Part shown: positions 11,740 through 39,629 of the stretch, one piece after another | Numbering within the stretch: the first letter of the stretch is position 1 | Layout: every line of letters starts with the position of its first letter | Assembly: GCA_019326865.1 (NCBI GenBank) | Contig: GCA_019326865.1_4101.1 | DNA from: a phage | Length of the DNA: 64,000 nucleotides | Strand: one strand, 5' to 3' | The notes under the pieces: model-generated | What the model saw: the letters and a program-made list of their open reading frames with translations, nothing else | Databases searched by the model: none | Told to the model about the DNA's origin: nothing | Position numbers and translations under genes: made by a program

Positions 11740-13335
11740 ATGAGCATAAGTTTTAATAACCCATTGGATACAATGACCAGTACTGGTGCTAATGGTTCTT
11801 TAGAATTAATAGTGCTTGGTGGTTCACCAACTAATCCAAGACCTATTCGTTTTAATTCGTCATCAGTCATTATACCAGTAAAAACATTACCTACTGGTGA
11901 GCAAGGTGCAATGGTTTTTGATAGAAATGAATTAGTTTTGAAGTATCATAACGGTACAAGTTGGGTTGCAGTATATGATACTGATACTATTTTGGAACCA
12001 ATTAGAATTTCATTGGATGAAGTAAATCGAAAATTAAATTTAAAAGTAGAAACCGTATCATATAGTAGCAGTGCTGTTCCAAGTGCAAGTATAAGTGGGA
12101 CTAATTTAAATATTGTATTCCCTACTGTAGCTACTGGCGGTTCAGGACCAACTGGACTTTACACTTCACTAAAACCTGGTGCTATTACACAATACGCATT
12201 GACATCTGGACAAAACGTTGCTAGTATACGTGAACAAATGTCGGGTCAAACCAATGGACAAAATGGTCGCAATGGCTCACAAGGTTCTCCGTGGAAAACA
12301 TCTGATGGTTGGTGTTTTGCTGATGGGATGTGGTGGCAATGGGAAGGCGAAAATGGTACAATTACTAAACAAGTACCAAACCTTAACAGAAACGCGTATT
12401 TAAAAGGAATATCCACATCAGGTGTAACTCAAATTGATGGTGTTATTAGTAGTAGTGGAAACATTAGCGGAACTGTTTTAAGTGTAGCACAGTTGCCATC
12501 TCACTCATTCAGTTTTAGTGGGACTACTAGTGCTGCTGGTCGTCATGGTCATAGTCAAGCACTAAAAGGTAATGACCGTAGTGGTCTAAATGCAATAACG
12601 TCGAGTAGAGATAATGGTATTCCAACTGTAATCAGTAATATTAATGAAGCACCTGACCACGTACACTCATTTAGTGGAAACACAAACACACTTGGTGGAA
12701 ATCAGCCACATTACCATAGCATTAGTAACGTTGATGTGGAACACTTTAACGTTGCATACCTATATAATATTGCTGAATCTAACGTTGCATTGAGCGAAAA
12801 AGTTGCAAATAAACGTTATGTACTGAAAACTGGTGATACAATGACTGGCTCATTGACTATTGCAAATAGTGCATCCATACAGTCAAATGATACATCATTA
12901 GTTCTTTATTTCCGTAATGCAAGTGGGGGCGAACGTGCAGCGGTATATCATAACTCATCAAACAACACCTTGAGATTACGTTCTGGTGGTGCAGAAGTAG
13001 CTGTAAACTCTTCGGGTAACTTGTCTGCTCCATCTTTAACTGTTTCTAATAACTCAGCTACTGTTGGTGGCAAAAATATTGTTCGTTCGATTAACGGAAA
13101 TGCAGCAGATGGTAATGGTAATGTGAATATTAAAATTGAAACTGGTGCAATTACTGCTATGAAATTTGGTGGTAAACAACAACTTAGTGTTTCTGATAAC
13201 ATATATCGTTCAGGATGGGTAATCACTGGTTGGGCAAATGGTGATAAAAAAGAACTACGTGGTGCTGGTTATTGGTCTGCTCCATTGTATTATTTGATTG
13301 GTAGTTCTTGGTACATCATCCCAACCGATAATTAA
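11740..13335 (+). CDS. putative tail fiber protein
   Basis: Ser/Thr/Gly/Asn-rich 531-aa protein containing KTGDTMTGSLTI, a motif recurrent in phage tail fibers. Confidence 0.5.
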   Translation: MSISFNNPLDTMTSTGANGSLELIVLGGSPTNPRPIRFNSSSVIIPVKTLPTGEQGAMVFDRNELVLKYHNGTSWVAVYDTDTILEPIRISLDEVNRKLNLKVETVSYSSSAVPSASISGTNLNIVFPTVATGGSGPTGLYTSLKPGAITQYALTSGQNVASIREQMSGQTNGQNGRNGSQGSPWKTSDGWCFADGMWWQWEGENGTITKQVPNLNRNAYLKGISTSGVTQIDGVISSSGNISGTVLSVAQLPSHSFSFSGTTSAAGRHGHSQALKGNDRSGLNAITSSRDNGIPTVISNINEAPDHVHSFSGNTNTLGGNQPHYHSISNVDVEHFNVAYLYNIAESNVALSEKVANKRYVLKTGDTMTGSLTIANSASIQSNDTSLVLYFRNASGGERAAVYHNSSNNTLRLRSGGAEVAVNSSGNLSAPSLTVSNNSATVGGKNIVRSINGNAADGNGNVNIKIETGAITAMKFGGKQQLSVSDNIYRSGWVITGWANGDKKELRGAGYWSAPLYYLIGSSWYIIPTDN

Positions 13336-13347
13336 TAGGAAAATAAT

Positions 13348-13890
13348 ATGCAAATTTATAAAGGATGGAAAGCTTATAAACCTAATCGTACTGAGGAAAA
13401 TGCAAATGGGATAGATGCAGGTGCTCTTTTCATTCAAGATGAAAATGGCAATGATTGGTATGATTTTATGAAATCACATGCTGATCGTAAAGACTTTTAT
13501 GTATTAGTTGATGAAGTAACTTCAGTTGTGATTGGATATGGTTATTCAGTTGTGGAAACATTTCCAATTGAAATGACATTGTGTATAGTAGAAGATATTA
13601 ATGAACTACCCGACGGTTTTTTAGAAAATCCAAAATACTTTGAACTCAAGAACGATAAGATAGTTTCTAGCAATGTTCTTAAGAAAGTAGAACTTGGATA
13701 TGCACTTGAATATGAGTTGGATTGGGTAAATTCAGAAATTAGTGTTCTAGCTGATGCTGAATTGTTTGAAGATCCTGAAGATCTTCCACCAATTCAAGAA
13801 CGTCTATTAAAACTTCGTCGTTATCGTTATGAACTCTCAAAAGTTGATCCTGAAGTAACTCCTGATTATGTTATACCAGCACGTCCTTAA
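13348..13890 (+). CDS. hypothetical protein (possible tail fiber assembly chaperone, by position)
   Basis: 180-aa ORF 12 nt after the fiber gene; positional inference only. Confidence 0.4.
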   Translation: MQIYKGWKAYKPNRTEENANGIDAGALFIQDENGNDWYDFMKSHADRKDFYVLVDEVTSVVIGYGYSVVETFPIEMTLCIVEDINELPDGFLENPKYFELKNDKIVSSNVLKKVELGYALEYELDWVNSEISVLADAELFEDPEDLPPIQERLLKLRRYRYELSKVDPEVTPDYVIPARP

Positions 13891-13900
13891 GGATTGAATG

Positions 13901-13938
13901 AAAACTGCTGCAAATTGTTTGTGGCAGTTTTTTATTTT
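13901..13938 (+). terminator. rho-independent terminator
   Basis: aaaactgctgcaaa / tttgtggcagtttt long stem (two G-U pairs) followed by ttatttt. Confidence 0.65.
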
Positions 13939-14046
13939 AATAGTTTATAGTTAAAAGAGTGTCTTGTAGAACAACTATCTTGTTTAACTTCATGCTAACC
14001 TATACAATGTTGCACCTGCCGTGTCAGAAAATTCATAGGATTTTTT

Positions 14047-14075
14047 TGGGACACTTTAAGAAGAACTGATATAAT
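14047..14075 (+). promoter_or_regulatory. promoter TGGGAC-N17-TGaTATAAT (extended -10)
   Basis: tgggac at 14047-14052, tgatataat at 14067-14075; member of a recurrent promoter family in this window. Confidence 0.55.
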
Positions 14076-14111
14076 ATAGTCATTCCACAATGTTCCTTAT
14101 GGAATGACTAT
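14076..14111 (+). promoter_or_regulatory. 11-bp inverted repeat immediately downstream of the promoter (operator or 5' leader hairpin)
   Basis: atagtcattcc ... ggaatgactat perfect inverted repeat starting right after the -10 element. Confidence 0.4.
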
Positions 14112-14149
14112 ATTTGATTATATAATTTATCACATGGAGATATACAAAA

Positions 14150-14452
14150 ATGGCTAAATCTAAAAAAGAAGTTAAAGTAGAAATTCGTGATCTAAACGAT
14201 GAACAACGTAAACGCCTCGGAGATGCACTTAATAACATTGTTGTACAACTTACTTTCATTGATGATACCAAAGCATCCTTGTCAGATTTTGTTTCTAGTA
14301 TTTCAGATGAACTAGGTATCAATGCATCTGATATCAAGCAAGCTGCACAGCGTATGTATAAAGGTGATTACTTTGATAAACAAAGCAAACTAGATAACAT
14401 CGAAACTATCCTAAGTGTTACTAATAATCTACCACAAGCAGATGATTACTAA
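14150..14452 (+). CDS. hypothetical protein
   Basis: 100-aa ORF with RBS ggaga; precedes the DNA polymerase gene. Confidence 0.45.
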   Translation: MAKSKKEVKVEIRDLNDEQRKRLGDALNNIVVQLTFIDDTKASLSDFVSSISDELGINASDIKQAAQRMYKGDYFDKQSKLDNIETILSVTNNLPQADDY

Positions 14453-14475
14453 TTTCTAATAAAATATATTAAATG

Positions 14476-14503
14476 GCCTCCAGTGACGGAGGCTTTCTTT
14501 TTA
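14476..14503 (+). terminator. hairpin plus T-run (gcctcc-agtgac-ggaggc tttcttttt)
   Basis: Inverted repeat followed by a T-rich tract; the polymerase gene begins ~30 nt later, so this may attenuate rather than terminate. Confidence 0.55.
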
Positions 14504-14531
14504 ACTTAATAAACGTAAGGGAATATAAACG

Positions 14532-17500
14532 ATGTATATCGATGCTTATATGGAACGTAAACGTACTGGTGATATTCTTCATGTTGTGGAACGTAAAAAT
14601 GGTAAACGCATTCTACGTGAATTGGACCCAGTATATGAATATTATGTTGAATCACCACAAGGAACACATAAAACTGTTTATGGTACAATGGCTAAACATT
14701 TTGAGTTTCAAACCCAAGCTCAAATGAATAAAAGTGTAGAGAAACACAAAAATGAAGGTCTACGTATTTTTGAAAGTGATTGTAATATCATATTCAAAAC
14801 CTTAGCTAAAGAATATATGGGGAAAGGTTCACCAGATTTGAATATCGTATTCTTCGATATTGAAACTGACTTCCATAAGAAATTTGGTTATGCTCCACCA
14901 TCGGACCCATTTAACCGCGTAACTGCCATTTCTTTATATCAATCATGGACTGGCAAAGATTATGTACTTACTTTACCACCAGTTGATATGGAAATTTATG
15001 AAGCACAAGATATTGTTCGTAAGCTAAATGAAGAAACAAATGATCCTAACAGTACTGTGATTCTATATACAGACGAAAAGGAAATGTTTATGGAATTCTT
15101 TAGTTTAATTGATGACTCTGATGTTATTTCAGGATGGAATAGTGAATTTTTTGATATTCCATATATGATCAATCGAACTAAAAAAATCTTCAATGAAGCA
15201 ACGACTGCTCGTTGGTGTTTATGGAATAAAAAACCAAATTCACGTGAAGCCGATAACTTTGGAAAAACTGTACAAACTTATGATCTGGTAGGACGTGTTC
15301 ATCTAGATTACTTGGCTTTGTATAAAAAACATGCTGGGCAAGTTGAACAATCTTATAAACTAGATTATATTGCTGAAAAAGTAACAAAAGAAAATAAAGT
15401 ATCTTATGAAGGTTCATTGGATAAACTTTATAGAGAAGATTACATTACTTTCTTGCGTTATTCTAAACAGGATAGTATTCTTCTTAAAAAGATTGATGCT
15501 AAATGTGACTACATCAACCTACATAATCGTCTTGCACATAAAGAGTGTGTACTTATTAGTACAACAATGGGTTCAGTAGCACTAATCGACACTGCTATTA
15601 TTAACTTAGCACATAGCCGTGGTGAAGTTGTTTTTAACAAAGCACCTAAAGACGATGTTGAGTTTGATCCAGAAATGGAATATTATAGTGAAGATGGTGA
15701 AGATGAAGAAGAGAAAATCAGTGCAAAAGCCGCAGGTGCATGGGTACAAGATCCAGTTTTGGGACTTGTAAGTGACCTTGGATGTACTGACTTTAACTCT
15801 CTTTATCCTACAGTTCTACGTACATTGGGAATGAGCACAGAATGTATTCTTGGTCAATTACGTCAAGATTATACGGATGCGTATCTTGCAGCTAAAATTC
15901 AGGAACAGAAAAATAAATCCAAATCTAGATCATTTGAACCAGACTGGACTGCCGCATGGCATGGTTTGTTTGCTGCTGTTGAGTTCACTATGGTTCATGA
16001 AAAGTCAGAAGAAACATTGATTGTAGATTTAGAAGATGGGAGTTCTTTTAAAGCAACTGGAAAAGAACTATATGATATTATTTTTGCAGAAGATAGTACT
16101 ATTGTTCTAAGTGCAAATGGAACCTTGTTTGATAAATCAAAATCTGGTGTAATTCCAGATATTCTTACACAATGGTATTCTGAACGTAAAGCTCAACAAA
16201 AAATGGTTATTGATTACAAACATATGTGTACTGATGGTTGGGAGTTTAATGGTCATGAAAAAGTTGAACCACTATTGACAAACTATACCCCAGGAACTAT
16301 GTTTAGAACTAATATCCATGATAACGATCCTGTATACTTACTTCGCAAAGAAATTGGCAAAGGACAATGGGATGAAGTTGCTAAGTTGATTGTAGAAAAT
16401 GGATTAGTACTTAAAGATGGTCGCATTTACTGTCCTAAAGAAGAAAAAGATTACTTCAAGCAACGTAGTGCTTTCTGGAAACAGAACCAACAGATTCGTA
16501 AAATTCTTCTAAACAGTCTATATGGTGCACTACTGAACAAAGGTTCTCGTTTCTTTGATAAGCGTTTGGGTCAATCTGTCACATTAACTGGTCGTTCGAT
16601 GACTAAGCATATGGCAAGTCGTATCAATGAAATTACAACTGGTGTATATATTCATCACGGCGGTTCTGTGATCTATGGGGACACTGACTCTGTGTACTTT
16701 AGTGTAACGCATTATCTAAAAGAACAAGGCATTCCATATAATTTATCTAAAGAAGAAATTGTTGATATGTATATTAAAATTGGTGAAGAAGTTGGTGAAT
16801 CTTTTCCATCATTTATGCATCAAATGTTCAACACTGGTATTGAAAAAGGTAAGATTGTTGGGGCAGACCTTGAGATGGTTGGTTCCCGTGGATTATTCTT
16901 GAAGAAAAAACGTTATGCAATTTTGAAGTACTGGGAAGATGGATTTCGCAAAGATATTGATGGTAAACCTGGTGAAATCAAAGCTATGGGTCTTGAAATT
17001 AAACGTTCAGATACACCAAAATACATCCAGAACTTCCTAGAAGAGACTCTAATTGCACTACTGGTAGGTGAGAATGAACAACAGTTAAAACAGCGTGTAC
17101 GTGCTTTTAAGGACGTATTTAAAGATATGCCTGTGCATGAAAAAGGCTCACCAAAAACTGTAAAAAACTACACAAATTTAGAGGCCGAATATCAACTAAC
17201 AGGTAAGTGTAAGGTTGGGCACGTTCTTGCTGGTATTCAATGGAACCGCTTACGTGAAGTTTATGATGATAAAACTGTCCCAGAAGTAACTGATGGAACA
17301 AAAGTAATTGTTTGTAACTTAAAAGATAATCCAATGGGGATTAAAGCAGTTGGTTATCCAATTGACTGTGTTGAGTATCTACCTGAATGGTTCTTAGAAC
17401 TACCATTTGACACTGAAAAAATGGAAGAGATTGTTCTAACTAAAAAATTAGAGAATATTTTTGGTATTTTAGATATGGATATTGGTATTCATGAAAAAAG

Positions 17501-17537
17501 TACTGCATCAGTAAACAATGGATTCTTCACTTGGTAA
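14532..17537 (+). CDS. gp43: DNA polymerase, family B (T4 gp43-like)
   Basis: Exo I motif FFDIETD; polymerase motif A TDFNSLYPTV (DxxSLYPS); motif C YGDTDSV; 1001 aa. Confidence 0.9.
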   Translation: MYIDAYMERKRTGDILHVVERKNGKRILRELDPVYEYYVESPQGTHKTVYGTMAKHFEFQTQAQMNKSVEKHKNEGLRIFESDCNIIFKTLAKEYMGKGSPDLNIVFFDIETDFHKKFGYAPPSDPFNRVTAISLYQSWTGKDYVLTLPPVDMEIYEAQDIVRKLNEETNDPNSTVILYTDEKEMFMEFFSLIDDSDVISGWNSEFFDIPYMINRTKKIFNEATTARWCLWNKKPNSREADNFGKTVQTYDLVGRVHLDYLALYKKHAGQVEQSYKLDYIAEKVTKENKVSYEGSLDKLYREDYITFLRYSKQDSILLKKIDAKCDYINLHNRLAHKECVLISTTMGSVALIDTAIINLAHSRGEVVFNKAPKDDVEFDPEMEYYSEDGEDEEEKISAKAAGAWVQDPVLGLVSDLGCTDFNSLYPTVLRTLGMSTECILGQLRQDYTDAYLAAKIQEQKNKSKSRSFEPDWTAAWHGLFAAVEFTMVHEKSEETLIVDLEDGSSFKATGKELYDIIFAEDSTIVLSANGTLFDKSKSGVIPDILTQWYSERKAQQKMVIDYKHMCTDGWEFNGHEKVEPLLTNYTPGTMFRTNIHDNDPVYLLRKEIGKGQWDEVAKLIVENGLVLKDGRIYCPKEEKDYFKQRSAFWKQNQQIRKILLNSLYGALLNKGSRFFDKRLGQSVTLTGRSMTKHMASRINEITTGVYIHHGGSVIYGDTDSVYFSVTHYLKEQGIPYNLSKEEIVDMYIKIGEEVGESFPSFMHQMFNTGIEKGKIVGADLEMVGSRGLFLKKKRYAILKYWEDGFRKDIDGKPGEIKAMGLEIKRSDTPKYIQNFLEETLIALLVGENEQQLKQRVRAFKDVFKDMPVHEKGSPKTVKNYTNLEAEYQLTGKCKVGHVLAGIQWNRLREVYDDKTVPEVTDGTKVIVCNLKDNPMGIKAVGYPIDCVEYLPEWFLELPFDTEKMEEIVLTKKLENIFGILDMDIGIHEKSTASVNNGFFTW

Positions 17538-17692
17538 GGAGTTAGATAATATGGTTATTGTAAATGAAATCGAACTAAATTATGATGAAGTAAACGACAC
17601 TTTCACCAATGCAGTATTGAACATTACTGAAGAAAGTGTAAATGATGCATGGGAAAAATATGTAGAATGGGCTGCATTACAAGGTAAAAATA

Positions 17693-17989
17693 ATGAGTAA
17701 TATATATAAGCGTATTGGAGAAGTTCTGGAAGGTAATGGTATCATTAATTCAGTTCTAGCATACGATAATAATGAAGAGATGGTTCTAATTGGTGCTGGC
17801 TTTACCCGCACTGGCTCGGTGGAAGTTGATGGCGAAATTGCTGATATCTACACTATTGTGAAAAAGCGTAACGTTGTTTTTGTGGATGATGTATATACAT
17901 TAAAAGACTTGGCAAATTTACGCAATAAAATTGGCATGAGTTCCACTATTGATAAACCTTATCTTAAACGTTGGAACACAAAATTCTGA
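17693..17989 (+). CDS. hypothetical protein
   Basis: 98-aa ORF between polymerase and clamp-like gene; no motif recognised. Confidence 0.35.
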   Translation: MSNIYKRIGEVLEGNGIINSVLAYDNNEEMVLIGAGFTRTGSVEVDGEIADIYTIVKKRNVVFVDDVYTLKDLANLRNKIGMSSTIDKPYLKRWNTKF

Positions 17990-18088
17990 TAAAAAATGAG
18001 ACAAGCATCATTTTTGAGATATAATGGTGCTTGTAGTAATCTGACATAAACACATTTTTGATTAACAAATAGAACGGAGAATTATATA

Positions 18089-18820
18089 ATGGATCTACGC
18101 AACGTATTACGTGACCTTGTAAACACAACCAGTGGTATTGACTTCTCTTGTATTGCTGTAAGTAGTGAAGACCGTGGTGAAGGGCAACGTGTATATCTAG
18201 AAGCGTACACAGATGACCGAACTCTAGTGATGCGAGCATATACTAAAGAGGATGTTCCTGAAGTTCAGGGTCGCTTTGGGTTAGGAAATCTAGGTCTTCT
18301 TCAGGGTCTAATGTCTCTAAAAACATACAGTACTGAAGGAACAACAATCACGTCAAATGTCAAAGACGGATCTGTAAAAAGTCTAGCATTTAAATCTGAA
18401 GATGCAAGCACTACATTTATGGTACAAGCTGAAAAACTTATTCCAGTACAACCACGTTTTCATGAACAACCATATGACGTACAGGTTATTCCTAGTGCAG
18501 CAAAAGTTCAAGAACTAAAGAGTTTTTCTGGTGTATTTAAATCATTCAGTTCTCTCGTAACTCCGTATACTGATGGTGACACACTATACTTTCACGTTGG
18601 TGAGAAAAACAAAAGCAACCACGTTGGTTCACTAGCTTTTTCTAAAACTGATGGAGAATTGGGACTTGGATTTGGATATAATATTGATCGAGTACTTCAA
18701 GCACTATCTCGTGTCTCTAATGCTGAATCTGTATCACTTGGTATCACAAAAACTGGTATGTTAAATGTCACACTAGATACTGGAATTGCTGTATACAAAT
18801 TTTATGTAACTGGTTGCTAA
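18089..18820 (+). CDS. gp45: sliding clamp (T4 gp45-like), tentative
   Basis: N-terminus LRDLVNTTSGI resembles T4 gp45 LKNFATINSGI; similar length (243 vs 228 aa) and location next to the polymerase. Confidence 0.5.
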   Translation: MDLRNVLRDLVNTTSGIDFSCIAVSSEDRGEGQRVYLEAYTDDRTLVMRAYTKEDVPEVQGRFGLGNLGLLQGLMSLKTYSTEGTTITSNVKDGSVKSLAFKSEDASTTFMVQAEKLIPVQPRFHEQPYDVQVIPSAAKVQELKSFSGVFKSFSSLVTPYTDGDTLYFHVGEKNKSNHVGSLAFSKTDGELGLGFGYNIDRVLQALSRVSNAESVSLGITKTGMLNVTLDTGIAVYKFYVTGC

Positions 18821-18829
18821 TATAAATAA

Positions 18830-18850
18830 CGGGGAACAAGTTGTTCCCCG
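18830..18850 (+). terminator. hairpin after clamp gene (ggggaac / gttcccc)
   Basis: 7-bp GC-rich stem; downstream tract only moderately T-rich. Confidence 0.4.
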
Positions 18851-18885
18851 AATTAGTTTGATTTAAAAGTAAAGGAATACAAAAA

Positions 18886-19092
18886 ATGCCATTATATACA
18901 TATCGTTGTGAAAAAGAAGAATGTAAACATAGTATGGAAAAAATTGTTAAAATTGCAAATCGTGATGAACCCCATGACTGCCCTAAATGTAATGGTAAAA
19001 AGACTATGAAGTTAGAAGTATTCACACCAGGTGATAAAGGTGCTAATCTTTATTTCCGTGGAAAATGGTTTGCAAATACTGGAGGTTACTGA
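18886..19092 (+). CDS. small Zn-ribbon protein (FmdB-like CxxC...CPxC)
   Basis: YTYRCEKEEC...DCPKCNG; 68 aa. Confidence 0.45.
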   Translation: MPLYTYRCEKEECKHSMEKIVKIANRDEPHDCPKCNGKKTMKLEVFTPGDKGANLYFRGKWFANTGGY

Positions 19093-19093
19093 T

Positions 19094-19393
19094 ATGAAAA
19101 TTAAAATGATTAATGATTACGTTCTTGTTCGTCAAATTGAAGCACAGAATAAAAGTTCTGGTGGTATTATTCTAGGGAATGTTGAGCCACCATGCATTGG
19201 TATGGTAATTTCCGTTGGTCCAGGTAAAGTTCTACCGAACGGACAACTAGCAGAGCATGATATTAAAGAAGGTGATATGGTTGTATTTGGACGTTCATCT
19301 TTGAACACCCCCCTAACTGAAGATCTTGGGGGTGGAGAAGACACATACTATGTAATGAAAATCGAAGAGATTTTTGGTAAGAAAAATGGCTAA
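19094..19393 (+). CDS. groES: GroES-family co-chaperonin (Hsp10 homolog)
   Basis: MKIKMINDYVLVRQIEAQNKSSGGIILG...GMVISVGPGKVLPNGQL...IKEGDMVVFGR...YYVMKIEEIFG follows the E. coli GroES pattern; RBS ggagg upstream of ATG 19094. Confidence 0.75.
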   Translation: MKIKMINDYVLVRQIEAQNKSSGGIILGNVEPPCIGMVISVGPGKVLPNGQLAEHDIKEGDMVVFGRSSLNTPLTEDLGGGEDTYYVMKIEEIFGKKNG

Positions 19394-20111
19394 AAATAAA
19401 TTTATACCATTTTGGATGATCCCTGCTCACTGGGGACTTTCTGGTAAGGCAAAAGAAATAGCCAAAGCATATTACTACAATGATGATTATGAAGCTGATA
19501 TGAAGATTGCAGAATTGACATATCTAACTCCATATGAAGTTGAAGTAGCACAATTGGATATCAAAAAGAAATATGGTGTAATAGAAGAGTTAGAATATCT
19601 AATTGCTATGCTAGATGTAGAATTGAAATATTCCAAAATCACTCGTGAACAGTATGATGTTAAAGTTCTTGATGCAAAATTGAGTACTGGTGCAATCACT
19701 GAAAAAGAATATGATATGGAAATCATCGAGCTAATGCCAGATGGTGATGAAAAAAGACTAAAGGCTATTGAATTTGCATATCGTTATGATGAAATCACAC
19801 AAAGTGAATATTCTAAGGAAATATACACACTTAGAAAAGAGCCTTGGATTGATTTGAATGTGGTTCTTGACCCTGAAACAAATGAAGTTGAGTTTGTGTT
19901 TGATTATAATGAATATTTCTGGAAAAAACTGAAAGCGGAAGGTCATCCAGGTAATGACGAAGAAGAAATTATCGATAATTTTGTTAGAGACTTAGGTCGC
20001 AAACTTGCTACAGATGATTTCAGTGATGATTATGACGCAAAGTTGGTGAGTGTGAACGAAGGATTAGACAAGCTACCTGGTTTACCTGAAGGGTTTCGTT
20101 CATATAGATAA
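19386..20111 (+). CDS. hypothetical protein
   Basis: ORF of ~240 aa; start ambiguous between 19374 and 19386. Confidence 0.45.
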   Translation: MAKNKFIPFWMIPAHWGLSGKAKEIAKAYYYNDDYEADMKIAELTYLTPYEVEVAQLDIKKKYGVIEELEYLIAMLDVELKYSKITREQYDVKVLDAKLSTGAITEKEYDMEIIELMPDGDEKRLKAIEFAYRYDEITQSEYSKEIYTLRKEPWIDLNVVLDPETNEVEFVFDYNEYFWKKLKAEGHPGNDEEEIIDNFVRDLGRKLATDDFSDDYDAKLVSVNEGLDKLPGLPEGFRSYR

Positions 20112-20117
20112 AATATA

Positions 20118-20148
20118 AAAAGGAGAGCGTGTGCTCTCCTTTTCTTTT
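20118..20148. terminator. bidirectional rho-independent terminator between convergent genes
   Basis: aggagagc-gtgt-gctctcct hairpin flanked by A-run upstream and T-run downstream. Confidence 0.7.
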
Positions 20149-20156
20149 GTAATATG

Positions 20157-20846
20157 TTAAACCAATGCTGGAAGGTATTGGAATAGTTTAATACCGAAAT
20201 CCCCTGCTGCATCAGCGGCCTGTGAACGTAGATAAACTTCAGTGACCCCATCTTTAGCAAGTAGTGGAACACCAGTTAGATCATCAATTAGTAGGCGACC
20301 TTCTTCATATTCAGTACTTGGAACGCCTTGTGGTGATTTTAGATCTTTGTTAAAAACACTAGCACGTTCAACTAGGAATGTGATAACAGACGCATCATCA
20401 ATACTAACTTTACCAGCACTAATAACACCATCTGGTGCGTTGGTGAAACCAGTAACTGGAAACACTTCACTACCATTTCCTGCAATGTTGGATGTTGCAA
20501 TAACAACTGCACGTTGTTGTACAACATCTACGATGCGTTTTACGTTAGTTTGTGCCGCATAGGATGCATTGTAATCTGATTCTAGTGATTCTAGAACGAA
20601 AGCAGAACCATCAACACGCTTGATACCTTTATCATTTAGGTATGCTAGAATTTCTTCTGGGATATCAGTGTTTAGAAAACGTTGTAAACCTACATAAGAG
20701 GAAACTGCTCCTGTTACAAGAACGTTCACGTCACCAAGTTTACTAATAGCAATAGATGCTAGGGCGTTAGTACCACAAAAGTAACCTAGAATACGCTCAA
20801 ATGAATACCCATTGATACGTTCAAAAGAAGTATTAGTATTTGACAT
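20157..20846 (-). CDS. hypothetical protein, tandem paralog A (possible virion structural protein)
   Basis: Shares QQRAVVIATSNIAG and RASVFNKDL with the neighbouring ORF 20862..21461. Confidence 0.55.
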   Translation of the reverse strand: MSNTNTSFERINGYSFERILGYFCGTNALASIAISKLGDVNVLVTGAVSSYVGLQRFLNTDIPEEILAYLNDKGIKRVDGSAFVLESLESDYNASYAAQTNVKRIVDVVQQRAVVIATSNIAGNGSEVFPVTGFTNAPDGVISAGKVSIDDASVITFLVERASVFNKDLKSPQGVPSTEYEEGRLLIDDLTGVPLLAKDGVTEVYLRSQAADAAGDFGIKLFQYLPALV

Positions 20847-20861
20847 AATATTACCTCTCTA

Positions 20862-21461
20862 TTATAGTTGAACTGGAAGAGCAGCACGTACTTTAATAGC
20901 TACAGCAGTAGATGCACCTGCATCACCAACACCATCAGTTCCTTGACTTACGAAAGTTTTAGTACGAAAAACTTTAGCTTGTGCAATAGATTTAGCTAGG
21001 TCAACAGTTGGATCAACTGGAGCAGGACATGCAGAACCTGGACGAACTTCTTGTTTATTAAATACGTCTTGACGTTCACAGATGAAAGTCAATGCAACAG
21101 AGTTAGCACCACCTTTAACATCAGTACCGCTAGTACCAAATGCAACTACGTTTGGGTTAGCATTTTTAAAATCTTCAGGAATAACAACTTCTGCATCAAG
21201 AGCAAGTAGTGAAGTCGTTACAAGAACAGCACGTTGCTGTAGTAGTTGAGTAACCATGAATAGGTTATATTGTGCATTGCTTAGTGCAGTTTGATATGCA
21301 TCAGCTTGAGCATCAGAACCATCGGACACAACTTTAGTAGTACCGATTTCAACATCAGTTGGTAGGTCGATTACGATGGTTACAAAACCGTTGTTGCCAC
21401 CCCACCATTCACGTGCAACACCAGACATACCATAGTTACGGTTAAAAGAATTAAGACTCAT
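20862..21461 (-). CDS. hypothetical protein, tandem paralog B (possible virion structural protein)
   Basis: QQRAVLVTTSLLAL and RQDVFNKQEV match paralog A; two TAAATAA-type elements lie upstream on the minus strand. Confidence 0.55.
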   Translation of the reverse strand: MSLNSFNRNYGMSGVAREWWGGNNGFVTIVIDLPTDVEIGTTKVVSDGSDAQADAYQTALSNAQYNLFMVTQLLQQRAVLVTTSLLALDAEVVIPEDFKNANPNVVAFGTSGTDVKGGANSVALTFICERQDVFNKQEVRPGSACPAPVDPTVDLAKSIAQAKVFRTKTFVSQGTDGVGDAGASTAVAIKVRAALPVQL

Positions 21462-21507
21462 GAAAATCTCCTTGTCGAATTTTGTGCAGGTTCATCCTGC
21501 TTAAAGT

Positions 21508-21584
21508 TATTTATCAAAAAATATTCCTAGCATTTAAATTTACTGGAATAATTAATGAATTTCTATGATATTATTTATCAAAAA
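21508..21584 (-). promoter_or_regulatory. two direct copies of tttttgataaataa (minus-strand sense), late-promoter-like
   Basis: Plus-strand ttatttatcaaaaa at 21508-21521 and 21571-21584; contains a TAAATAA core resembling T4 late TATAAATA. Confidence 0.4.
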
Positions 21585-27936
<6,352 letters not shown>

Positions 27937-28024
27937 GTAAACCGTCAAAGGAACAATGAAGTTTCTAAGACAATTGAAGCCAATTAACAAATAACAAAGA
28001 AACCCAAAATCAAGGAAGAAATAT

Positions 28025-29083
28025 ATGAAATCTCTAGCTGAAATTCGTGCACACCTAAAAGCAGAACAAGAAAAAGCAGAAGCACAAAAGAATGGTACAT
28101 TCACTGGTGAGCGTAAAGCTGATTCGTTTCTAGCTTTCTGGAACGTACCTTACAATGAACCACTAAATCTACGTTTTCTACCAGATGCTGATGAGTCCAA
28201 CCCATTCTTCTGGCGTGAACGTGACATGATCAACCTAACATTCAATGGTGTAGTCGGTATGCACACTGATAAAGTAACCGTACAAGTACCTTGTAATGAA
28301 ATGTGGGTTCCTAAATCTTGTCCGGTTCTGAAAGAAGTACGTCAATGGTTCCAAAGTGCGAATGAAACAGGGAATGAAGAACTAAAAGCAATGGCAGGTC
28401 GTTACTGGAAGAAAAAAACTTATCTAATGCAATGCTTTATTGCACCAGATAGTGTTGCAGTAAAAGACGACATTGCACCAGAAAATCCAATTCGCCGTAT
28501 TCTAGCTAACAAAGATATCTTTGATAAAGTTAAATCTATCCTACTAAACCCAGGTATCAAAGAATCCCCAACTCACTACGTTCAAGGTCGTGATTTTGGT
28601 ATTGTTAAAACTAAGAACGGTGGTGGATATAATAGCTACGACATGTCACAATTCTCCATGTCAGAGCGTCCACTAAACGAAGAAGAACTAGCAGCAATCG
28701 AAAAATATGGTCTATTCAATCTAAATGATTTTATGCCAAAACAACCAACTCCAGAAGAGTTGAAAGCAATCGAAGAAATGTTCGAAGCATCAGTAAATGG
28801 TGAAGCATATGATCCAGCACGTTGGGCATTTGCATATCGTCCAGCAGGTGTACCAAAGCCTAACACTGGAACTACCACTGTCACTGAATCAAAACCAACT
28901 CCTGCTCCAGTACAACAAGAGTCAACACCTGCACCAGTAGCACCTACTGTTCCAGTTACACCAGCACCACAAGCTGCTCCTGTAACCCCAGTCGCTACAC
29001 CAGCAGCATCTACGACTGAAGCACCAAAAGAACAACTATCTGCATCTGCACTAGTTGCTCGTTTGAAACAACAAGGTAAGTAA
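28025..29083 (+). CDS. gp32: ssDNA-binding protein (T4 gp32-like)
   Basis: LRFLP matches T4 gp32 IRFLP; Ala/Pro/Thr-rich C-terminal tail; position before uvsX; two promoters upstream. Confidence 0.6.
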   Translation: MKSLAEIRAHLKAEQEKAEAQKNGTFTGERKADSFLAFWNVPYNEPLNLRFLPDADESNPFFWRERDMINLTFNGVVGMHTDKVTVQVPCNEMWVPKSCPVLKEVRQWFQSANETGNEELKAMAGRYWKKKTYLMQCFIAPDSVAVKDDIAPENPIRRILANKDIFDKVKSILLNPGIKESPTHYVQGRDFGIVKTKNGGGYNSYDMSQFSMSERPLNEEELAAIEKYGLFNLNDFMPKQPTPEELKAIEEMFEASVNGEAYDPARWAFAYRPAGVPKPNTGTTTVTESKPTPAPVQQESTPAPVAPTVPVTPAPQAAPVTPVATPAASTTEAPKEQLSASALVARLKQQGK

Positions 29084-29101
29084 TAGTTTTTTGAAAAGTT
29101 A

Positions 29102-29128
29102 AGGGGCAACGGAGTTTGCCCCGTTTTA
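29102..29128 (+). terminator. rho-independent terminator
   Basis: ggggcaa-cggagt-ttgcccc hairpin followed by gtttt. Confidence 0.7.
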
Positions 29129-29153
29129 TTTCATAAAATTCAAGGAGAGAATT

Positions 29154-30275
29154 ATGAAAATGACAAGTGGTTTTGCGAACATTCTTAAAAACAGTACTGG
29201 TAGTGTAAAAAAGAATACTGGTGTTAGTGTTGGATTTCATGATCCAGATACATGGGTTAGTACTGGTAACTATGCACTAAATTACCGTATCAGTGGTTAT
29301 TTTGACCGTGGTATCCCACTAGGTAAAGTAACTATGTTTGCTGGTGAATCAGGTAGTGGTAAATCTTTTATTGTATCCGGTAACATCGCACGTGAAGCTC
29401 AACAACAAGGTATTTTTGTTGTAATGATTGACACAGAGAATGCTTTGGATTCAGATTGGCTACAAGCTCTTGGTGTTGACACTTCTGAAGAAAAACTTCT
29501 TAAAGTTAATATGGGTATGATTGGTGATGTAGCCAAATTCACTTATGAATTTATTGAAGGATATCGCAAAGAGTACGAAAATACACCTAAAGATGAACGC
29601 CAAAAAGTATTGTTCATTATCGATTCGATTGGTATGCTTAATACTGAAGTATCTAATGATCAAATGAAGGCTGGTAATCTTAAAGGTGATATGGGACATA
29701 AACCTAAGCAGCTAAAAGCATATATTACTAACTGTGTGAATTCTATTGGTTCACTAAATATTGGAATGGTTTGTGTGAACCATTCGTATGAATCACAGGA
29801 TATGTTTAATCCAGATCCTAAAGTGTCTGGTGGTAGTGGTTTGATTTATGCATCATCAATGGTGATTGCAATGGGTAAACTAAAACTAAAAGAAGATGAG
29901 GATGGTAATAAAACTTCCGATGTGAGTGGTATTCGCTCCAAATGTAAAGTTATGAAAACTCGTTATAATAAACCATTCGAGGAAGTCGAGATTAAGATTC
30001 CTTGGGATAAAGGTATGGACCCGCGTAGTGGTTTGTTGGATATGTTTGAAAAATATGGACTTATTGTTAAATCAGGTAACCGATTGATGTATGTTGATAT
30101 CGACACTGGTGAGCAAATCTTGAAATACCGCAAAGAATGGATGCGTAACGATGATTTATGTTTGGATTTGGTAATGCATCAATTTAAACGTCACCCACTG
30201 ATTGAAGAAGTCAAAGAGGAAGAAAAAGGTGATGAATCTTTTGGTGTAGATAGTTCAACTGATAGTACTGAATAA
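29154..30275 (+). CDS. uvsX: UvsX recombinase (RecA-like)
   Basis: Walker A GESGSGKS; DPRSGLLDMFEKYGLIVKSGNRLMY vs T4 UvsX DPYSGLLDMALELGFVVKPKNGWY. Confidence 0.9.
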   Translation: MKMTSGFANILKNSTGSVKKNTGVSVGFHDPDTWVSTGNYALNYRISGYFDRGIPLGKVTMFAGESGSGKSFIVSGNIAREAQQQGIFVVMIDTENALDSDWLQALGVDTSEEKLLKVNMGMIGDVAKFTYEFIEGYRKEYENTPKDERQKVLFIIDSIGMLNTEVSNDQMKAGNLKGDMGHKPKQLKAYITNCVNSIGSLNIGMVCVNHSYESQDMFNPDPKVSGGSGLIYASSMVIAMGKLKLKEDEDGNKTSDVSGIRSKCKVMKTRYNKPFEEVEIKIPWDKGMDPRSGLLDMFEKYGLIVKSGNRLMYVDIDTGEQILKYRKEWMRNDDLCLDLVMHQFKRHPLIEEVKEEEKGDESFGVDSSTDSTE

Positions 30276-30285
30276 TGATATGTTA

Positions 30286-30316
30286 TATGAATGGCCCGTA
30301 TGGGTCATTCTTTTTT
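30286..30316 (+). terminator. hairpin plus T-run overlapping the annotated 5' end of ORF 30291
   Basis: gaatggccc-gtat-gggtcattc followed by ttttttg; this is why the downstream start is placed at 30327. Confidence 0.55.
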
Positions 30317-30326
30317 GAGGATGTGT

Positions 30327-31931
30327 ATGATTGATATATCCAAATTATATAATATGATAAAAGACATTCCCCATCCTAATTCTCGTAAAAAAATACTAAT
30401 GGGGGAAATTTCCGAAGAAGATATGATGGAGTTCGGAACAACTGAATTAAAGCAGATTGATTATTGTATAATGAATAAATTAAAACATGTACCATTAGCA
30501 CCGTGCGGGGAAAATAAAAAATACCATAATGGAAAATATTTGAATGTATGTGAAAAATATAAACTTGGTGACAATCATTCATGTATAGTCTGTCATGAAA
30601 ATAAGACAAAAGAAACATTATCTAAAATGAAGAAAACTTCTTTATCTAAATATCAAACTGAATTTCCTAATCAGTCCATTGATGTAAAAAGAAAGATACG
30701 AGAAAATTCTAATTTTACTGAAGATGAAAAAAACGCAATTAATGAAAAGAAAAAAGAAACATCATTGAAACAATTCGGTACTGAACATCCAATGAAGAAT
30801 AGTACTGTTAAGTTGACACAAATTCAGTCCAGAAAAAAGACACAAGAGCAAACTAACAACAAAAGAATTAAAACTTTAATGCAGAAAAAAACATTAAATG
30901 TTTCTGAAAATTTGGATAAATCAAAATATGAAATTGTTGAATTGCGATTGGGGACTAATGTAAAAAGTACATTCAGGTGTTTACAGTGTGGACAACAATT
31001 TGATGCATTAAGTCATTGGGGATGTAAAGTTGTTTACTGTCCACAATGTGATGTTTCACCTATGCGTTCTAATATGGAAAATGATGTTGTATCTATCATA
31101 AAAGAAATAGAACCAACTATTGATATTGAACTTAATAATAGAAAAATCATAAAACCAAAAGAAATAGATATATATTTGCCTAAGTATAATTTGGGTATAG
31201 AAGTTAATGGAATGTACTGGCATTCTGATAAATTTAAGTCAGAAAACTATCATCAAGATAAAGTTAAAGCTGCTATGTCATCTGGAATGAAATTATTAAC
31301 AATTTATGATTATGATCTTTCAAAAAACAAAGATGTAATAGTTTCAATGATAAAAAATTCAATGAATAAATCTTCTTTTAATGTTTATGCAAGAAAATGT
31401 GAAATTAAAGAAGTACCTAAAGTTGAAGAACGTAATTTCCTAAACACCTATCATATTCAAGGATTTGTTGGTTCAAATATTTGTTATGGTTTGTATTATA
31501 ATTGCGAGTTAGTATCATTAATGTCTTTTGGTAAGCCAAGATTTAATAAAAATTTTGAATATGAAATTATACGATTTTGTTCAAAAGGTAATGTTGTTGG
31601 TGCAGCAGGGAAGTTATTAAAACATTTTGAGATAACTATCAAGCCTAAGTCATTGATTACATATGCTGATTTACGATATGGATATGGTAAAACTTATGAA
31701 AAAATAGGTTTTGAATACAAATATATTACTAAACCTGGATATTTTTATGTTAATGGAAAGGGTGATGTGGTTACTCGATATCAAGCACAAAAACATAAAC
31801 TTCTGAAGAAATACCCAGAATATCAAAATGAGACAAACATTACTGAATATGATATAATGGGGTCTGAAGGATATTTAAAGATATATGATTGTGGAAACGC
31901 TGTGTATGTGAAGGAATACAACAATGAATAA
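30327..31931 (+). CDS. multi-domain putative nuclease, paralog 2 of 3
   Basis: RBS gagg 6 nt before ATG 30327; core motif IDIYLPKYNLGIEVNGMYWH; C-terminal domain VYARKCEI...HIQG...FGKPRFNKNFEYEIIRFCSKGNVVGAAGKLLKHFE matches paralogs 1 and 3. Confidence 0.7.
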   Translation: MIDISKLYNMIKDIPHPNSRKKILMGEISEEDMMEFGTTELKQIDYCIMNKLKHVPLAPCGENKKYHNGKYLNVCEKYKLGDNHSCIVCHENKTKETLSKMKKTSLSKYQTEFPNQSIDVKRKIRENSNFTEDEKNAINEKKKETSLKQFGTEHPMKNSTVKLTQIQSRKKTQEQTNNKRIKTLMQKKTLNVSENLDKSKYEIVELRLGTNVKSTFRCLQCGQQFDALSHWGCKVVYCPQCDVSPMRSNMENDVVSIIKEIEPTIDIELNNRKIIKPKEIDIYLPKYNLGIEVNGMYWHSDKFKSENYHQDKVKAAMSSGMKLLTIYDYDLSKNKDVIVSMIKNSMNKSSFNVYARKCEIKEVPKVEERNFLNTYHIQGFVGSNICYGLYYNCELVSLMSFGKPRFNKNFEYEIIRFCSKGNVVGAAGKLLKHFEITIKPKSLITYADLRYGYGKTYEKIGFEYKYITKPGYFYVNGKGDVVTRYQAQKHKLLKKYPEYQNETNITEYDIMGSEGYLKIYDCGNAVYVKEYNNE

Positions 31932-32388
31932 ACCTTGGCATTGGATTATCAAAGATGATAAATCTAAAATTATTGAAATGATTGAGTTCTTTAACAAAGA
32001 AATTGAAGAGGCTCGTTGTGAAGTAAAGAAGATTGGCATCATTGAAAAAATTGCTCAAGAGATTCCTGGCTGGCATGAGACGCGTCTAAGCCAGCTCCAA
32101 GAACTTGAAGCAGTATTGGAAATGTTAGAAATTGAAATGCGTCAGATACAAGCCGAGAAGTTCAAATACTTTCTCGAAGGATACCGACGTGCACTATCTT
32201 CATCTGACTGTAAAAAGTATGTTGAAGGTGATAAAGATGTTTGTGAGTTAGCAGAACTTATAAACGAGGTATCTTATATAAGAAATACATATTCTAGTAT
32301 TGTTAAATCTTTAGAAATGAAAGCATTTCAATTGAATAACATTGTAAGGCTACGTGCTTCTGGTATAGAGGACGCACGTTTGGAATAA
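31924..32388 (+). CDS. hypothetical protein (weak UvsY-like pattern)
   Basis: 154 aa; C-terminal EGDKDVCELAELINE...AFQLNNIVRLR loosely resembles T4 UvsY ADKDVLKVDTSL...KHIQDMR. Uncertain. Confidence 0.4.
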   Translation: MNKPWHWIIKDDKSKIIEMIEFFNKEIEEARCEVKKIGIIEKIAQEIPGWHETRLSQLQELEAVLEMLEIEMRQIQAEKFKYFLEGYRRALSSSDCKKYVEGDKDVCELAELINEVSYIRNTYSSIVKSLEMKAFQLNNIVRLRASGIEDARLE

Positions 32389-32398
32389 TTATCATTAA

Positions 32399-32421
32399 GG
32401 ACGCATCCCGCGTCCTTTTTC
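32399..32421 (+). terminator. rho-independent terminator
   Basis: ggacgc-atcc-cgcgtcc hairpin followed by ttttt. Confidence 0.65.
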
Positions 32422-32438
32422 TATGTGAGATTAAACAA

Positions 32439-33257
32439 ATGACAAAATTAAATGAATTCTTATCAAATGTAGCAGTTCTTGATACTGAAACCACTGGTGT
32501 TGAAAGTGATGATGATATTATTGAATTTAGTATCTCATATCCATATACTTCACATGAAAACATTGATACTATTGATAACTATACATTGCGATATAAACCA
32601 CTGAAAGATATTCCACCAGAAGCATCGGCTGTTCACTTTATCAGTACTGAGGATGTAGCTAATTGTGTTGGGTATAAAGATGATTTAGATAACATAGATG
32701 CACTTATGGGATGCCGTAAGTATTTTGTTGGTCATAATGTACAATTTGACCGTAGAATGATGGTAGATAATGAATATAAATATCGTAACTCAGTTTCACA
32801 GTACTTACTCGATGAAGATAAATGGATTTGTACTCTTCGTTTGGCTAAGAAAATGTTTGCAGAAGATACCGAATATAAAAACTTAACTCTAAGTTATTTG
32901 TGGTATAAGTTTGGATGCCATCGAGATGTTCACAGACCTATTAATGCTCACGCGGCAAAAGATGATGTATTCATGTGTTATCAGGTTCTAATCAAATTGG
33001 TTGAAATTGCCATCGAACGTGGTCATATTGATTCCAATGGGGATATTGGTGAACAAATAGTAGCTTTTTGTAACACCCCAATGCGTTATCAATTCATGCC
33101 ATTTGGTAAACATAAAGGTGAGCCAATGAATACAGTACCATTGAATTACATTGAATGGATGATCACTAATAGTGACATTTTAGATGCAAGTAACCCTAAC
33201 TGTGATAAAGATTTAGTATATACATTTGAGTACGAATATAATACTCGAACTAATTAA
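32439..33257 (+). CDS. DEDD-family 3'-5' exonuclease (DexA/DnaQ-like)
   Basis: Exo I VLDTETTG and Exo II VGHNVQFD motifs. Confidence 0.65.
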   Translation: MTKLNEFLSNVAVLDTETTGVESDDDIIEFSISYPYTSHENIDTIDNYTLRYKPLKDIPPEASAVHFISTEDVANCVGYKDDLDNIDALMGCRKYFVGHNVQFDRRMMVDNEYKYRNSVSQYLLDEDKWICTLRLAKKMFAEDTEYKNLTLSYLWYKFGCHRDVHRPINAHAAKDDVFMCYQVLIKLVEIAIERGHIDSNGDIGEQIVAFCNTPMRYQFMPFGKHKGEPMNTVPLNYIEWMITNSDILDASNPNCDKDLVYTFEYEYNTRTN

Positions 33258-33272
33258 TAAAGGTAATCATGG

Positions 33273-34757: not shown

Positions 34758-34769
34758 ACCCGCTGTTTG
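34746..34769 (+). terminator. hairpin acagcggg-ataaa-cccgctgt followed by ttgtg, overlapping the uvsW stop
   Basis: 8-bp GC-rich inverted repeat; a TGaTATAAT element (34770-34778) follows directly. Confidence 0.45.
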
Positions 34770-34812
34770 TGATATAATGTGTCATATGTAAACAACAAGG
34801 ATGTGGAATAAA

Positions 34813-39603: not shown

Positions 39604-39629
39604 GACAAAATTAGAAGGTGTGCTATAAT
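39601..39629 (+). promoter_or_regulatory. promoter TGAGAC-N17-TGcTATAAT
   Basis: tgagac at 39601-39606 and gtgtgctataat at 39618-39629; upstream of the primase gene. Confidence 0.55.

Follow-up and report, generated by a model that had tools for sequence, protein, structure and literature searches.

The DNA analysed here, a stretch of 64,000 nucleotides from a phage contig (GCA_019326865.1_4101.1 of NCBI GenBank assembly GCA_019326865.1; hereafter the window), carries genes nearly all of which lie on the + strand. Genes for DNA replication, recombination and repair are preceded in it by a recurrent bipartite motif, first noticed at positions 14047-14075 ahead of a DNA polymerase gene, that combines a G-rich upstream box with an extended -10 element. 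Systematic analysis of this motif shows it to be a real family of predicted phage promoters before replication and repair genes, which we refer to as the M-class (middle-class) promoter family, and comparison with related phages bears on which factor may read it.

Megablast of window positions 14000-22000 against phage records yielded 99.5% identity to Escherichia phage UE-S1, an Asteriusvirus jumbo coliphage, and about 91.5% to phages 121Q, PBECO4, G17 and Sharanji, with more distant matches to Klebsiella, Erwinia, Cronobacter and Pectobacterium phages of the RaK2/GAP32/CBB group. On these matches the window is DNA of an Asteriusvirus-type (RaK2/121Q-type) jumbo coliphage. Segments shared with UE-S1 are 98-99% identical and collinear apart from 13137-14131, which includes the first site of the original prediction, and 30246-31922, which is absent from UE-S1. 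The former segment comprises the C-terminal end of a tail fibre gene, an assembly gene and an intergenic region; it can be aligned with neither UE-S1 nor G17, which suggests that a receptor-binding module was swapped. The complete, unannotated 352-kb genome of phage ECO103 4-12-1 (hereafter ECO103; L003-L010) was assembled for genome-wide comparison, and lineages were compared using the syntenic 50-kb replication regions of phages EC.P1, RaK2, fENko-Kae01 (Kae01), CBB and XbC2 together with their sigma genes. Gene identities were assigned from Pfam, PHROGs, the annotation of relatives and synteny.

Geometry, frequency and placement of the motif

Aligned on TATAAT, the motif consists of an A/T tract, a T, the box G(G/A)GACA, a spacer of 16 (occasionally 17) bp and the hexamer TATAAT, with a TG at -15/-14. 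Box variants in the window are AGGACA, GGAACA, GGGAAA and GGGATA, and the TG element often appears as TGTGn before TATAAT. All eight sites listed in the original prediction are present at the coordinates given there. The 29-nt span of the prediction corresponds to TGRGAC-N17-TATAAT, and thus to N14 before TGnTATAAT, so the formula in its title, with N17 before TGnTATAAT, was slightly mis-stated.

The motif search and frequency comparison proposed with the original prediction place the family well above chance in AT-rich DNA. The pattern RRGACA-N16-TATAAT occurs seven times on the + strand of the window and not at all on the - strand, whereas 300 dinucleotide-preserving shuffles gave a mean of 0.13 and a maximum of 1, an enrichment of more than 50-fold. 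The word TGNTATAAT alone was found 16 times against 7.9 expected, with 15 of the 16 copies on the + strand. A generic sigma70 consensus scan of 13501-33500 showed no enrichment (92 matches versus 93 expected); since the generic scan is flat and the specific pattern is enriched, the signal stems from a specific family and not from AT-richness.

A position-weight matrix (PWM) built from the sites returned 11 strong matches in the window, every one of them on the + strand. TATAAT is present in 11/11 of these sites and TGn in 10/11, and the layout TGRRAC/RRGACA-N16-17-TATAAT fits 10/11. The family that had been described therefore stands, but its size was underestimated: it has 11 members and not eight, the additions being 17997-18025, 31829-31858 and 58094-58122, and the last two of these are intragenic, whereas all sites had been placed in intergenic gaps. 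The other nine lie in gaps or at gene junctions, the transcription start estimated for each falling 7-160 nt short of the next start codon on the + strand, and at 39601 and 47690 the TGA of the upstream box is the stop codon of the preceding gene. A further TGATATAAT, at 52028-52036, was rejected as a promoter on account of its ribosome-binding-site/start-codon context just past a terminator.

The first site (14047-14075, TGGGACA-N16-TGATATAAT) has a T-tract upstream and precedes a 100-amino acid (aa) open reading frame (ORF; 14150-14452), itself followed by the DNA polymerase gene (14532-17537). At the same junction UE-S1 and G17 carry GGGACA...TGATACACT and GAGACA...TGATACAAT, respectively, in the same place but with different sequence, the -10 being TATAAT in the window, TACACT in UE-S1 and TACAAT in G17. 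The flanks of the site cannot be aligned between the window and either phage, and the promoter is nonetheless kept; orthologues exist in EC.P1, Kae01, CBB and XbC2. A hairpin at 14076-14111 (-15.1 kcal/mol) begins directly after the -10 of this site, and the equivalent hairpin in UE-S1 (about 19960-19995 of L002) and G17 (2959-2984 of L001) is followed by a T-run and annotated as a terminator. As the predicted start lies within the 5' arm of this hairpin, transcripts arriving from upstream might stop there while those initiated at 14047-14075 escape. Between the 100-aa ORF, which has a weak match to a PHROG described as 'transcriptional regulator', and the polymerase start codon at 14532, a second terminator-like hairpin with a T-run is found at 14475-14494; G17 has an annotated terminator at the equivalent place, and expression of the DNA polymerase may depend on read-through of this hairpin.

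Site 17997-18025 (TGAGACA-N16-(AGA)TATAAT; PWM score 34.6) precedes ORF 18089-18820, whose Kae01 orthologue carries an annotation of similarity to the gp45 sliding clamp, and has orthologues in Kae01 (5160), CBB (5006) and XbC2 (4231). The site at 21585-21613 (TGGGAAA-N16-TGCTATAAT), with orthologues in all six lineages, precedes rnh, which encodes an RNase H-like 5'-3' exonuclease and probably starts at codon 21676. Upstream of the gene for a gp32-like single-stranded DNA-binding protein (28025-29083; Pfam gp32) the motif occurs as a tandem pair, with CGGGACA-N16-TGATATAAT at 27831-27859, which has the top PWM score (41.6), and TAGGACA-N16-TGCTATAAT at 27908-27936; EC.P1, Kae01, CBB and XbC2 likewise have a tandem pair here, the two members lying 76-87 bp apart.

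The site at 31829-31858 (TGAGACA-N17-TGATATAAT) falls within the 3' end of a gene for a homing endonuclease (30291-31931; 546 aa, phrog_3339 match at 5e-107), ahead of uvsY (31924-32388; Pfam UvsY). The endonuclease gene is inserted between uvsX and uvsY and is lacking in UE-S1, and the site that it carries would, if active, re-drive uvsY. The endonuclease gene found at the uvsX/uvsY junction of RaK2 is unrelated: comparison of ORF 30291-31931 with it detected no similarity. A weaker site (34750-34778, CGGGATA-N16-TGATATAAT) precedes ORF 34801-35241, and its box overlaps a terminator hairpin (34746-34766) at the end of the uvsW-like gene. Every related lineage examined has a site after uvsW, with GGGATA in EC.P1, GGGATGA in Kae01, TGAATG in RaK2 and GGAATG in CBB and XbC2.

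The DNA primase gene (39659-40714), assigned by synteny, is preceded by TGAGACA-N16-TGCTATAAT at 39601-39629, which has orthologues in EC.P1, Kae01, CBB and XbC2. The same arrangement (TGAGACA-N16-TGCTATAAT, 47690-47718) is found before a PD-(D/E)XK nuclease gene (47732-48451), where the -10 abuts the ribosome-binding site (47713-47734, TATAAT-TAGGAG-N7-ATG); the sequence TGCTATAAT followed by AGGAGTAC is kept at this gene in EC.P1, Kae01, CBB and XbC2. A transcript from this site would have a leader of about 7 nt, with most of the Shine-Dalgarno sequence missing. Site 54178-54207 (TGGAACA-N17-TGCTATAAT) stands before small ORFs (54236-54875) and a gene that synteny identifies as encoding a MazG-like pyrophosphohydrolase, and has orthologues in EC.P1, RaK2, Kae01, CBB and XbC2. 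The last match (58094-58122, CAGGACA-N16-TGATATAAT; PWM score 33) lies inside an RNase HI gene (57986-58432, with a Pfam RNase_H match from residue 9 on), about 340 nt before dda (58460). It is kept in ECO103 and EC.P1, where coding constraint could explain its conservation, and no equivalent was seen in the regions of Kae01, CBB and XbC2 that were compared; it may be an internal promoter, but its function is uncertain.

Conservation of the family and divergence of the upstream box

The orthologous junctions of EC.P1, Kae01, CBB and XbC2 share the layout box-N16/17-TGnTATAAT, including the tandem pair before gp32, and RaK2 has clear equivalents at four junctions. CBB and XbC2 match the window sites one-for-one at the polymerase unit, the clamp-like gene, rnh, the gp32 pair, the post-uvsW position, primase, the nuclease gene and the position before MazG. 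The -10 part is constant across lineages, whereas the upstream box is lineage-specific. The phages of this group also encode an RpoD-like sigma factor, and the recognition helix in region 4.2 of this protein differs along with the box. The window/121Q type combines T-G(G/A)GACA with the helix SRSS(V/I)HRKY, and EC.P1 pairs the same box with ARSSLHRKY. Kae01 has TTGGGACAA (mostly N17) and SRTSLHRCY, RaK2 has TGAAC(A/G) and VRGTLHYKF, and CBB and XbC2 have TG(A/G)AAC(G/A) and SKATLSRRY.

Sense/antisense counts of the box types follow the same division. RGGACR/GAGACR was counted 8/0 in the window, 9/0 in EC.P1, 8/0 in Kae01 and 0/0 in both RaK2 and CBB; GRAACR gave 7/0 in CBB and 8/0 in XbC2, and TGAACR gave 6/1 in RaK2. 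When each box was tabulated against each lineage, a lineage's own box had 6-9 matches and the boxes of other lineages 0-2.

The primary sigma factors of the hosts of these phages are, to our knowledge, essentially invariant in region 4. A second promoter class with the host-type TTGACA element is identical in ECO103 and CBB (CBB Table S5). A box that is conserved within lineages and differs between them, while the TTGACA class and host sigma region 4 stay constant, argues for a phage-encoded reader. This comparison supports the view that the specificity determinant of the box is phage-encoded and that the sites form a phage-specified promoter class, much as the original prediction had proposed in suggesting a phage-specific transcription class. 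Kae01 is informative in this respect. Its sigma factor is 46% identical to that of CBB and 37% identical to that of Asteriusvirus; even so, Kae01 agrees with Asteriusvirus in the helix residues (R..S.HR) as well as in the GGGACA-type box, so the box follows the helix and not overall relatedness.

Vibrio phage 2.275.O was considered as an extra, more distant lineage and left out as not comparable. Before genes of its polymerase region (L024, 318-349 kb) it has AATGTTATAAT(T/A)A with no conserved -35 box, and its sigma factor (399 aa) retains both region 2.3 tryptophans.

The family has a counterpart in the literature. Three promoter classes have been predicted in silico for Pectobacterium phage CBB (PMC5259590): 18 RpoD-like promoters with an UP-like element, concentrated in a presumed early region that also encodes an RNA polymerase sigma factor with regions 2, 3 and 4; 18 'divergent RpoD-like' promoters with a classic -10 and the -35 element TGAAACG ('Promoter 1', TGAAACG-N13-TGGTATAAT; Table S6); and ATAAATA late promoters. 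Of the 18 divergent sites, 11 stand before genes for DNA synthesis and one stands before CBB_244, the gp55-like sigma gene, and the divergent class was also identified in Cronobacter phage GAP32 (PMC5259590). The sites of CBB Table S6 (e.g. TGAAACGTAAGGAATTTTTCTGCTATAAT) and those of the window have an identical 29-nt geometry, with a 6-nt box, 17 nt, TATAAT and TGn before the -10, and share their downstream gene set and orthologous positions. CBB and Asteriusvirus moreover have the same genome type, an RpoD-like sigma gene among early-type promoters and a gp55-like late sigma factor. The boxes differ, being TG(G/A)GACA in the window and TG(A/G)AAC(G/A) in CBB and XbC2, and only site 54178-54207 (TGGAACA) resembles the CBB box. 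The window lacks the CBB TGAAACG consensus, but as the positions are orthologous we treat the difference as lineage variation of one class. The window family is, on this sequence comparison, the Asteriusvirus version of the in-silico class already predicted in CBB and GAP32. Our literature search found no published promoter descriptions for Asteriusvirus phages, and the paper on RaK2 analyses neither promoters nor sigma factors. Our inference that the box is tied to the region 4.2 helix is not made in PMC5259590.

Early and late promoter classes

In the ECO103 genome an iterated matrix gave 40 M-class PWM matches, all on the gene-sense strand and mostly between 60 and 265 kb. By contrast, 69 pattern matches to TTGACA or TTGCAA-N16-17-TATAAT are concentrated at 0-60 kb and 300-322 kb. 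We take these two stretches, which are rich in small ORFs, to be early regions, and the TTGACA/TTGCAA class to represent early promoters. The genes downstream of the M-class sites had been called early/replication-type; their replication-type character is borne out, but the designation as early is better replaced by middle, given that the early-type regions of ECO103 use TTGACA/TTGCAA. The ECO103 TTGACA promoters have TG directly before TATAAT and not TGn, and those at 300-322 kb form part of a stereotyped cassette with a 5' hairpin. About 20 copies of this cassette lie at 301-321 kb (L009), each consisting of AAAAAGTACTTGCA-N-GCGTATAATGTTTTACATC, a GGGGAA...TTCCCC hairpin, a ribosome-binding site and small ORFs; CAGTACTG forms the 3' part of many early-promoter spacers. 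The window itself has two canonical TTGACA-N17-TATAAT promoters. One (44757-44785) lies inside a coding region and has a RaK2 counterpart, TTAACT-N17-TATAAT, at the corresponding position, and the other (60668-60696) precedes an IF-3-like gene.

Motifs of the form (A/C)TAAATA(A/T), which resemble T4 late promoters, are found in the window at 911, 4908, 5258, 6795, 8004, 11355, 11702, 26509, 59844 and 61839. The (A/C)TAAATA motifs occupy gaps before structural genes, such as those for the portal, prohead protease, major capsid protein and tail fibre, and several of the late-type motifs take the form (A/C)TAAATAATATCATAC.

No fourth promoter class was detected on the main coding strand of ECO103 by k-mer enrichment over 247 intergenic segments and a visual survey of the 122 intergenic segments without TTGACA-type or M-type sites. 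The remaining segments contain terminators, ribosome-binding sites, late-type TAAATA, words of the early cassette and a motif on the opposite strand at 328-345 kb (L009). There, a repeated terminator hairpin (GCCAGTAC...GTACTGGC) followed by TTGATTAAATATAGTATAATGAA stands before each gene and looks like another conserved regulatory motif, for the leftward gene block. The palindrome AGTACT is also conspicuous. It is by far the most frequent 6-bp palindrome in ECO103, where base composition predicts about 120 copies and 919 are present in the 352 kb; the next, TTTAAA, has 406, and the window contains 82 copies of AGTACT. At least eight G+C-rich 6-bp palindromes are entirely absent from ECO103. 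The AGTACT pattern suggests selection tied to a restriction, modification or binding system.

Phage sigma factors and the reading of M-class promoters

Both the RpoD-like and the gp55-like sigma genes lie outside the window. The RpoD-like factor of UE-S1 is UES1_148 (phrog_351 match at 2e-53), and its Sharanji orthologue matches Pfam regions 2, 3 and 4. In ECO103 the gene occupies 18826-19788, and TTGACA promoters are found a few genes away on its upstream side, at 21383 and 22745. In relatives the gene is surrounded by small ORFs and TTGACA-type promoters, a setting that we take to be an early region. A tblastn search of the ECO103 genome with the C-terminal part of E. coli RpoD missed this gene, its best match (E = 1.2) being an unrelated ORF that was discarded; the sigma gene was located through the Sharanji annotation instead. 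The phage protein aligns to E. coli sigma70 residues 373-578 (E = 1e-14) and retains F419, K426, F427, T429 and Y430. In all of the phage sigma factors, about 10 extra residues are inserted immediately ahead of the region 4.2 recognition helix.

The region 4.2 helices were aligned to sigma70 T583-E591, and the positions of sigma70 R584/E585/R588/Q589 are occupied in the phage factors by R/S/H/R, K/A/S/R or R/G/H/Y. Genetic and structural work on sigma70 has reportedly shown that R588 contacts position 3 of the -35 hexamer and R584 position 5. Between Asteriusvirus and CBB, the residue at 588 changes from H to S and that at 584 from R to K, alongside a change from G to A at box position 3 and from A to G at position 6. 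The parallel between these residues and the specificity of the box is suggestive only.

A second candidate, UES1_539, annotated as 'putative RNA polymerase sigma factor', is encoded some 5 kb upstream of where the window begins. A Pfam search with it returned no match. As it adjoins gp46/47-like genes, we take it to be a gp55-like late factor and not the reader of M-class promoters. In UE-S1 this gene is itself preceded by an M-class promoter (GGGACA-N16-TGCTATAAT, about 365-393 of L002). Its annotated GTG start overlaps that promoter (364-460 of L002), and translation probably begins instead at an ATG near position 451 (MTNRPKRKKY...).

With an estimated probability of about 0.55, M-class promoters would be read by host core RNA polymerase carrying the phage RpoD-like sigma factor. 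Region 4.2 of this factor would read the T-G(G/A)GACA box and its regions 2-3 the extended -10 TGnTATAAT, with the upstream A/T tract as a possible UP-like element. Such a factor would fit a three-step cascade. Host sigma70 would express the phage sigma factor from TTGACA promoters; the phage sigma factor, in turn, would transcribe the replication genes together with the late sigma gene from M-class promoters; and the product of that late gene would act at (A/C)TAAATA late promoters before structural genes. The M-class promoters, serving genes of replication, recombination and nucleotide metabolism, would then form the middle tier. With three sigma factors (host sigma70, phage RpoD-like and gp55-like) and three promoter classes, a cascade is the most economical model; given the perfect extended -10, M-class promoters may in addition be used at a basal level by host sigma70. 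Initiation at the sites, its timing and the factor that reads the box are inferred throughout from sequence.

Known phage systems offer partial parallels to this arrangement. Promoters read by gp28 of Bacillus phage SPO1 have AGGAGA and TTTnTTT and depart from the host consensus at -35 and -10 alike, whereas the window sites differ from it in the -35 box alone and keep a host-like -10. The logic would be the same, with the host sigma factor serving early genes before gp28, a phage sigma70-family factor, redirects host core polymerase to a new -35/-10 pair at middle genes (PMC13401047). The M-class sites also differ from T4-type late promoters, which depend on gp55/gp33 and consist of TATAAATA with no -35 element, in having TATAAT and not TAAATA.

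Several observations weigh against reading by the phage sigma factor. The protein has S/S or T/T in place of W433/W434, is altered at Q437 and T440 in Asteriusvirus, and carries Y for H455 and V for E458. In sigma70, H455 and E458 are the residues that read the TG motif. A factor that lacks the usual -10 and TG readers, at promoters with a perfect extended -10, fits reading of the -10 by host sigma70 at least equally well. The covariation of box and helix amounts to only two or three independent evolutionary changes, the RaK2 pair misfits a simple one-residue code, and a phage activator could co-vary with the box equally well. In ECO103 the segregation of the classes is not absolute, as M-type matches also occur at 8-60 kb amid dense TTGACA promoters. 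Finally, our literature search found no transcription-start, expression-timing or in vitro transcription data for RaK2/CBB-group phages. The options that remain may be a non-canonical reading of the -10 by the phage sigma factor, host sigma70 together with a phage reader of the box, or the use of both sigma factors.

The second of these options corresponds to sigma appropriation, in which host sigma70 would read TGnTATAAT and a phage DNA-binding protein, working like T4 MotA/AsiA without being homologous to them, would read the box at about -35 to -29, leaving the RpoD-like sigma factor with another role. We regard it as unlikely, though it accounts naturally for a textbook primary-sigma extended -10 in every lineage and for the loss of W433/W434, H455 and E458, and the variation of the box between lineages needs only some phage-encoded reader. 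T4-type middle promoters, too, join a sigma70 -10, frequently extended, to a phage-specific upstream box ahead of replication-type genes, and the window phage likewise has a T4-related replication module and a cascade that would end with a gp55-type late sigma factor. The MotA box, (a/t)(a/t)(a/t)TGCTTtA, is centred near -30, 11-13 bp from the -10. In the window, by contrast, TGRGACA occupies -35 to -29 with a rigid 16-17 bp spacer and no site has a TGCTT-type element, so the -35 element differs from the MotA box as well as from TTGACA, as had been noted from the first inspection. T4 also has no full RpoD-like sigma factor, unlike window-type phages, in which appropriation would leave that factor without a promoter class, and the box tracks the sigma region 4.2 helix. 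A tblastn search of the ECO103 genome and the window with T4 AsiA and MotA sequences found nothing below E = 0.3, which is a weak test; the best AsiA-like ORF belongs to no Pfam family, and remote AsiA/MotA homologues may still exist.

It is more doubtful still that the sites are plain host sigma70 extended -10 promoters requiring no phage factor. TGnTATAAT, the UP-like A/T tract and a partial -35 (xxGACA at 16 bp) would then suffice, with the G-rich positions conserved for another reason, such as the tuning of promoter strength. Extended -10 promoters indeed need no -35 element, and E. coli promoters of this kind share with the window sites a perfect TATAAT, TG at -15/-14 and an A/T-rich UP-like tract. 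The Asteriusvirus box matches TTGACA at 4/6 positions, and the TG directly before TATAAT in the TTGACA promoters is what a trade-off between -35 strength and the extended -10 would lead one to expect. The -35 region of the window sites is, however, conserved, G-rich and lineage-specific, with at most 4/6 TTGACA matches. In a genome of 34% GC, neutral or weakened -35 positions should drift to A/T, and yet G is nearly invariant at box positions 1-3. The box is also conserved within lineages and different between them (GGGACA, GAAACG, TGAACA) while the TTGACA class is unchanged, and that of CBB and XbC2 matches TTGACA at only 2/6 positions. Least probable by far is that the sites are not promoters at all, being chance TATAAT-like words in AT-rich DNA or a repeat for replication, packaging or the like, a suspicion fed by the shuffled-sequence level of generic sigma70-like matches and by the start-codon context of the word at 52028, but opposed by the strict strand specificity and enrichment of the specific pattern, its placement before genes and the retention in six lineages of orthologous positions with the bipartite, fixed-spacer layout typical of sigma70-family promoters.

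If the phage sigma factor is the reader, the RaK2-, 121Q- and CBB-type sigma factors and their middle promoters could be natural orthogonal sigma/promoter pairs in which -35 specificity has been re-programmed at least twice, a tentative extension to which we give somewhat less credence than to the reading itself. The boxes GGGACA, GAAACG and TGAACA would have arisen by few substitutions in an atypical region 4.2, and a canonical extended -10 would be read non-canonically, without W433/W434, H455 and E458.

As the class had already been predicted in CBB and GAP32, the advance made here is incremental. The motif aids annotation by helping to place start codons and transcription-unit boundaries, as for rnh in the window and the gp55-like gene of UE-S1, and the sigma/promoter pairs could serve as orthogonal parts with E. 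coli core polymerase. The lineage-paired boxes and region 4.2 helices constitute a testable hypothesis on the evolution of -35 specificity. For 350-kb coliphages with an unstudied transcription programme, the analysis provides a regulatory map of three promoter classes and three sigma factors, in which replication genes would be under M-class control, as would the late sigma gene in UE-S1.

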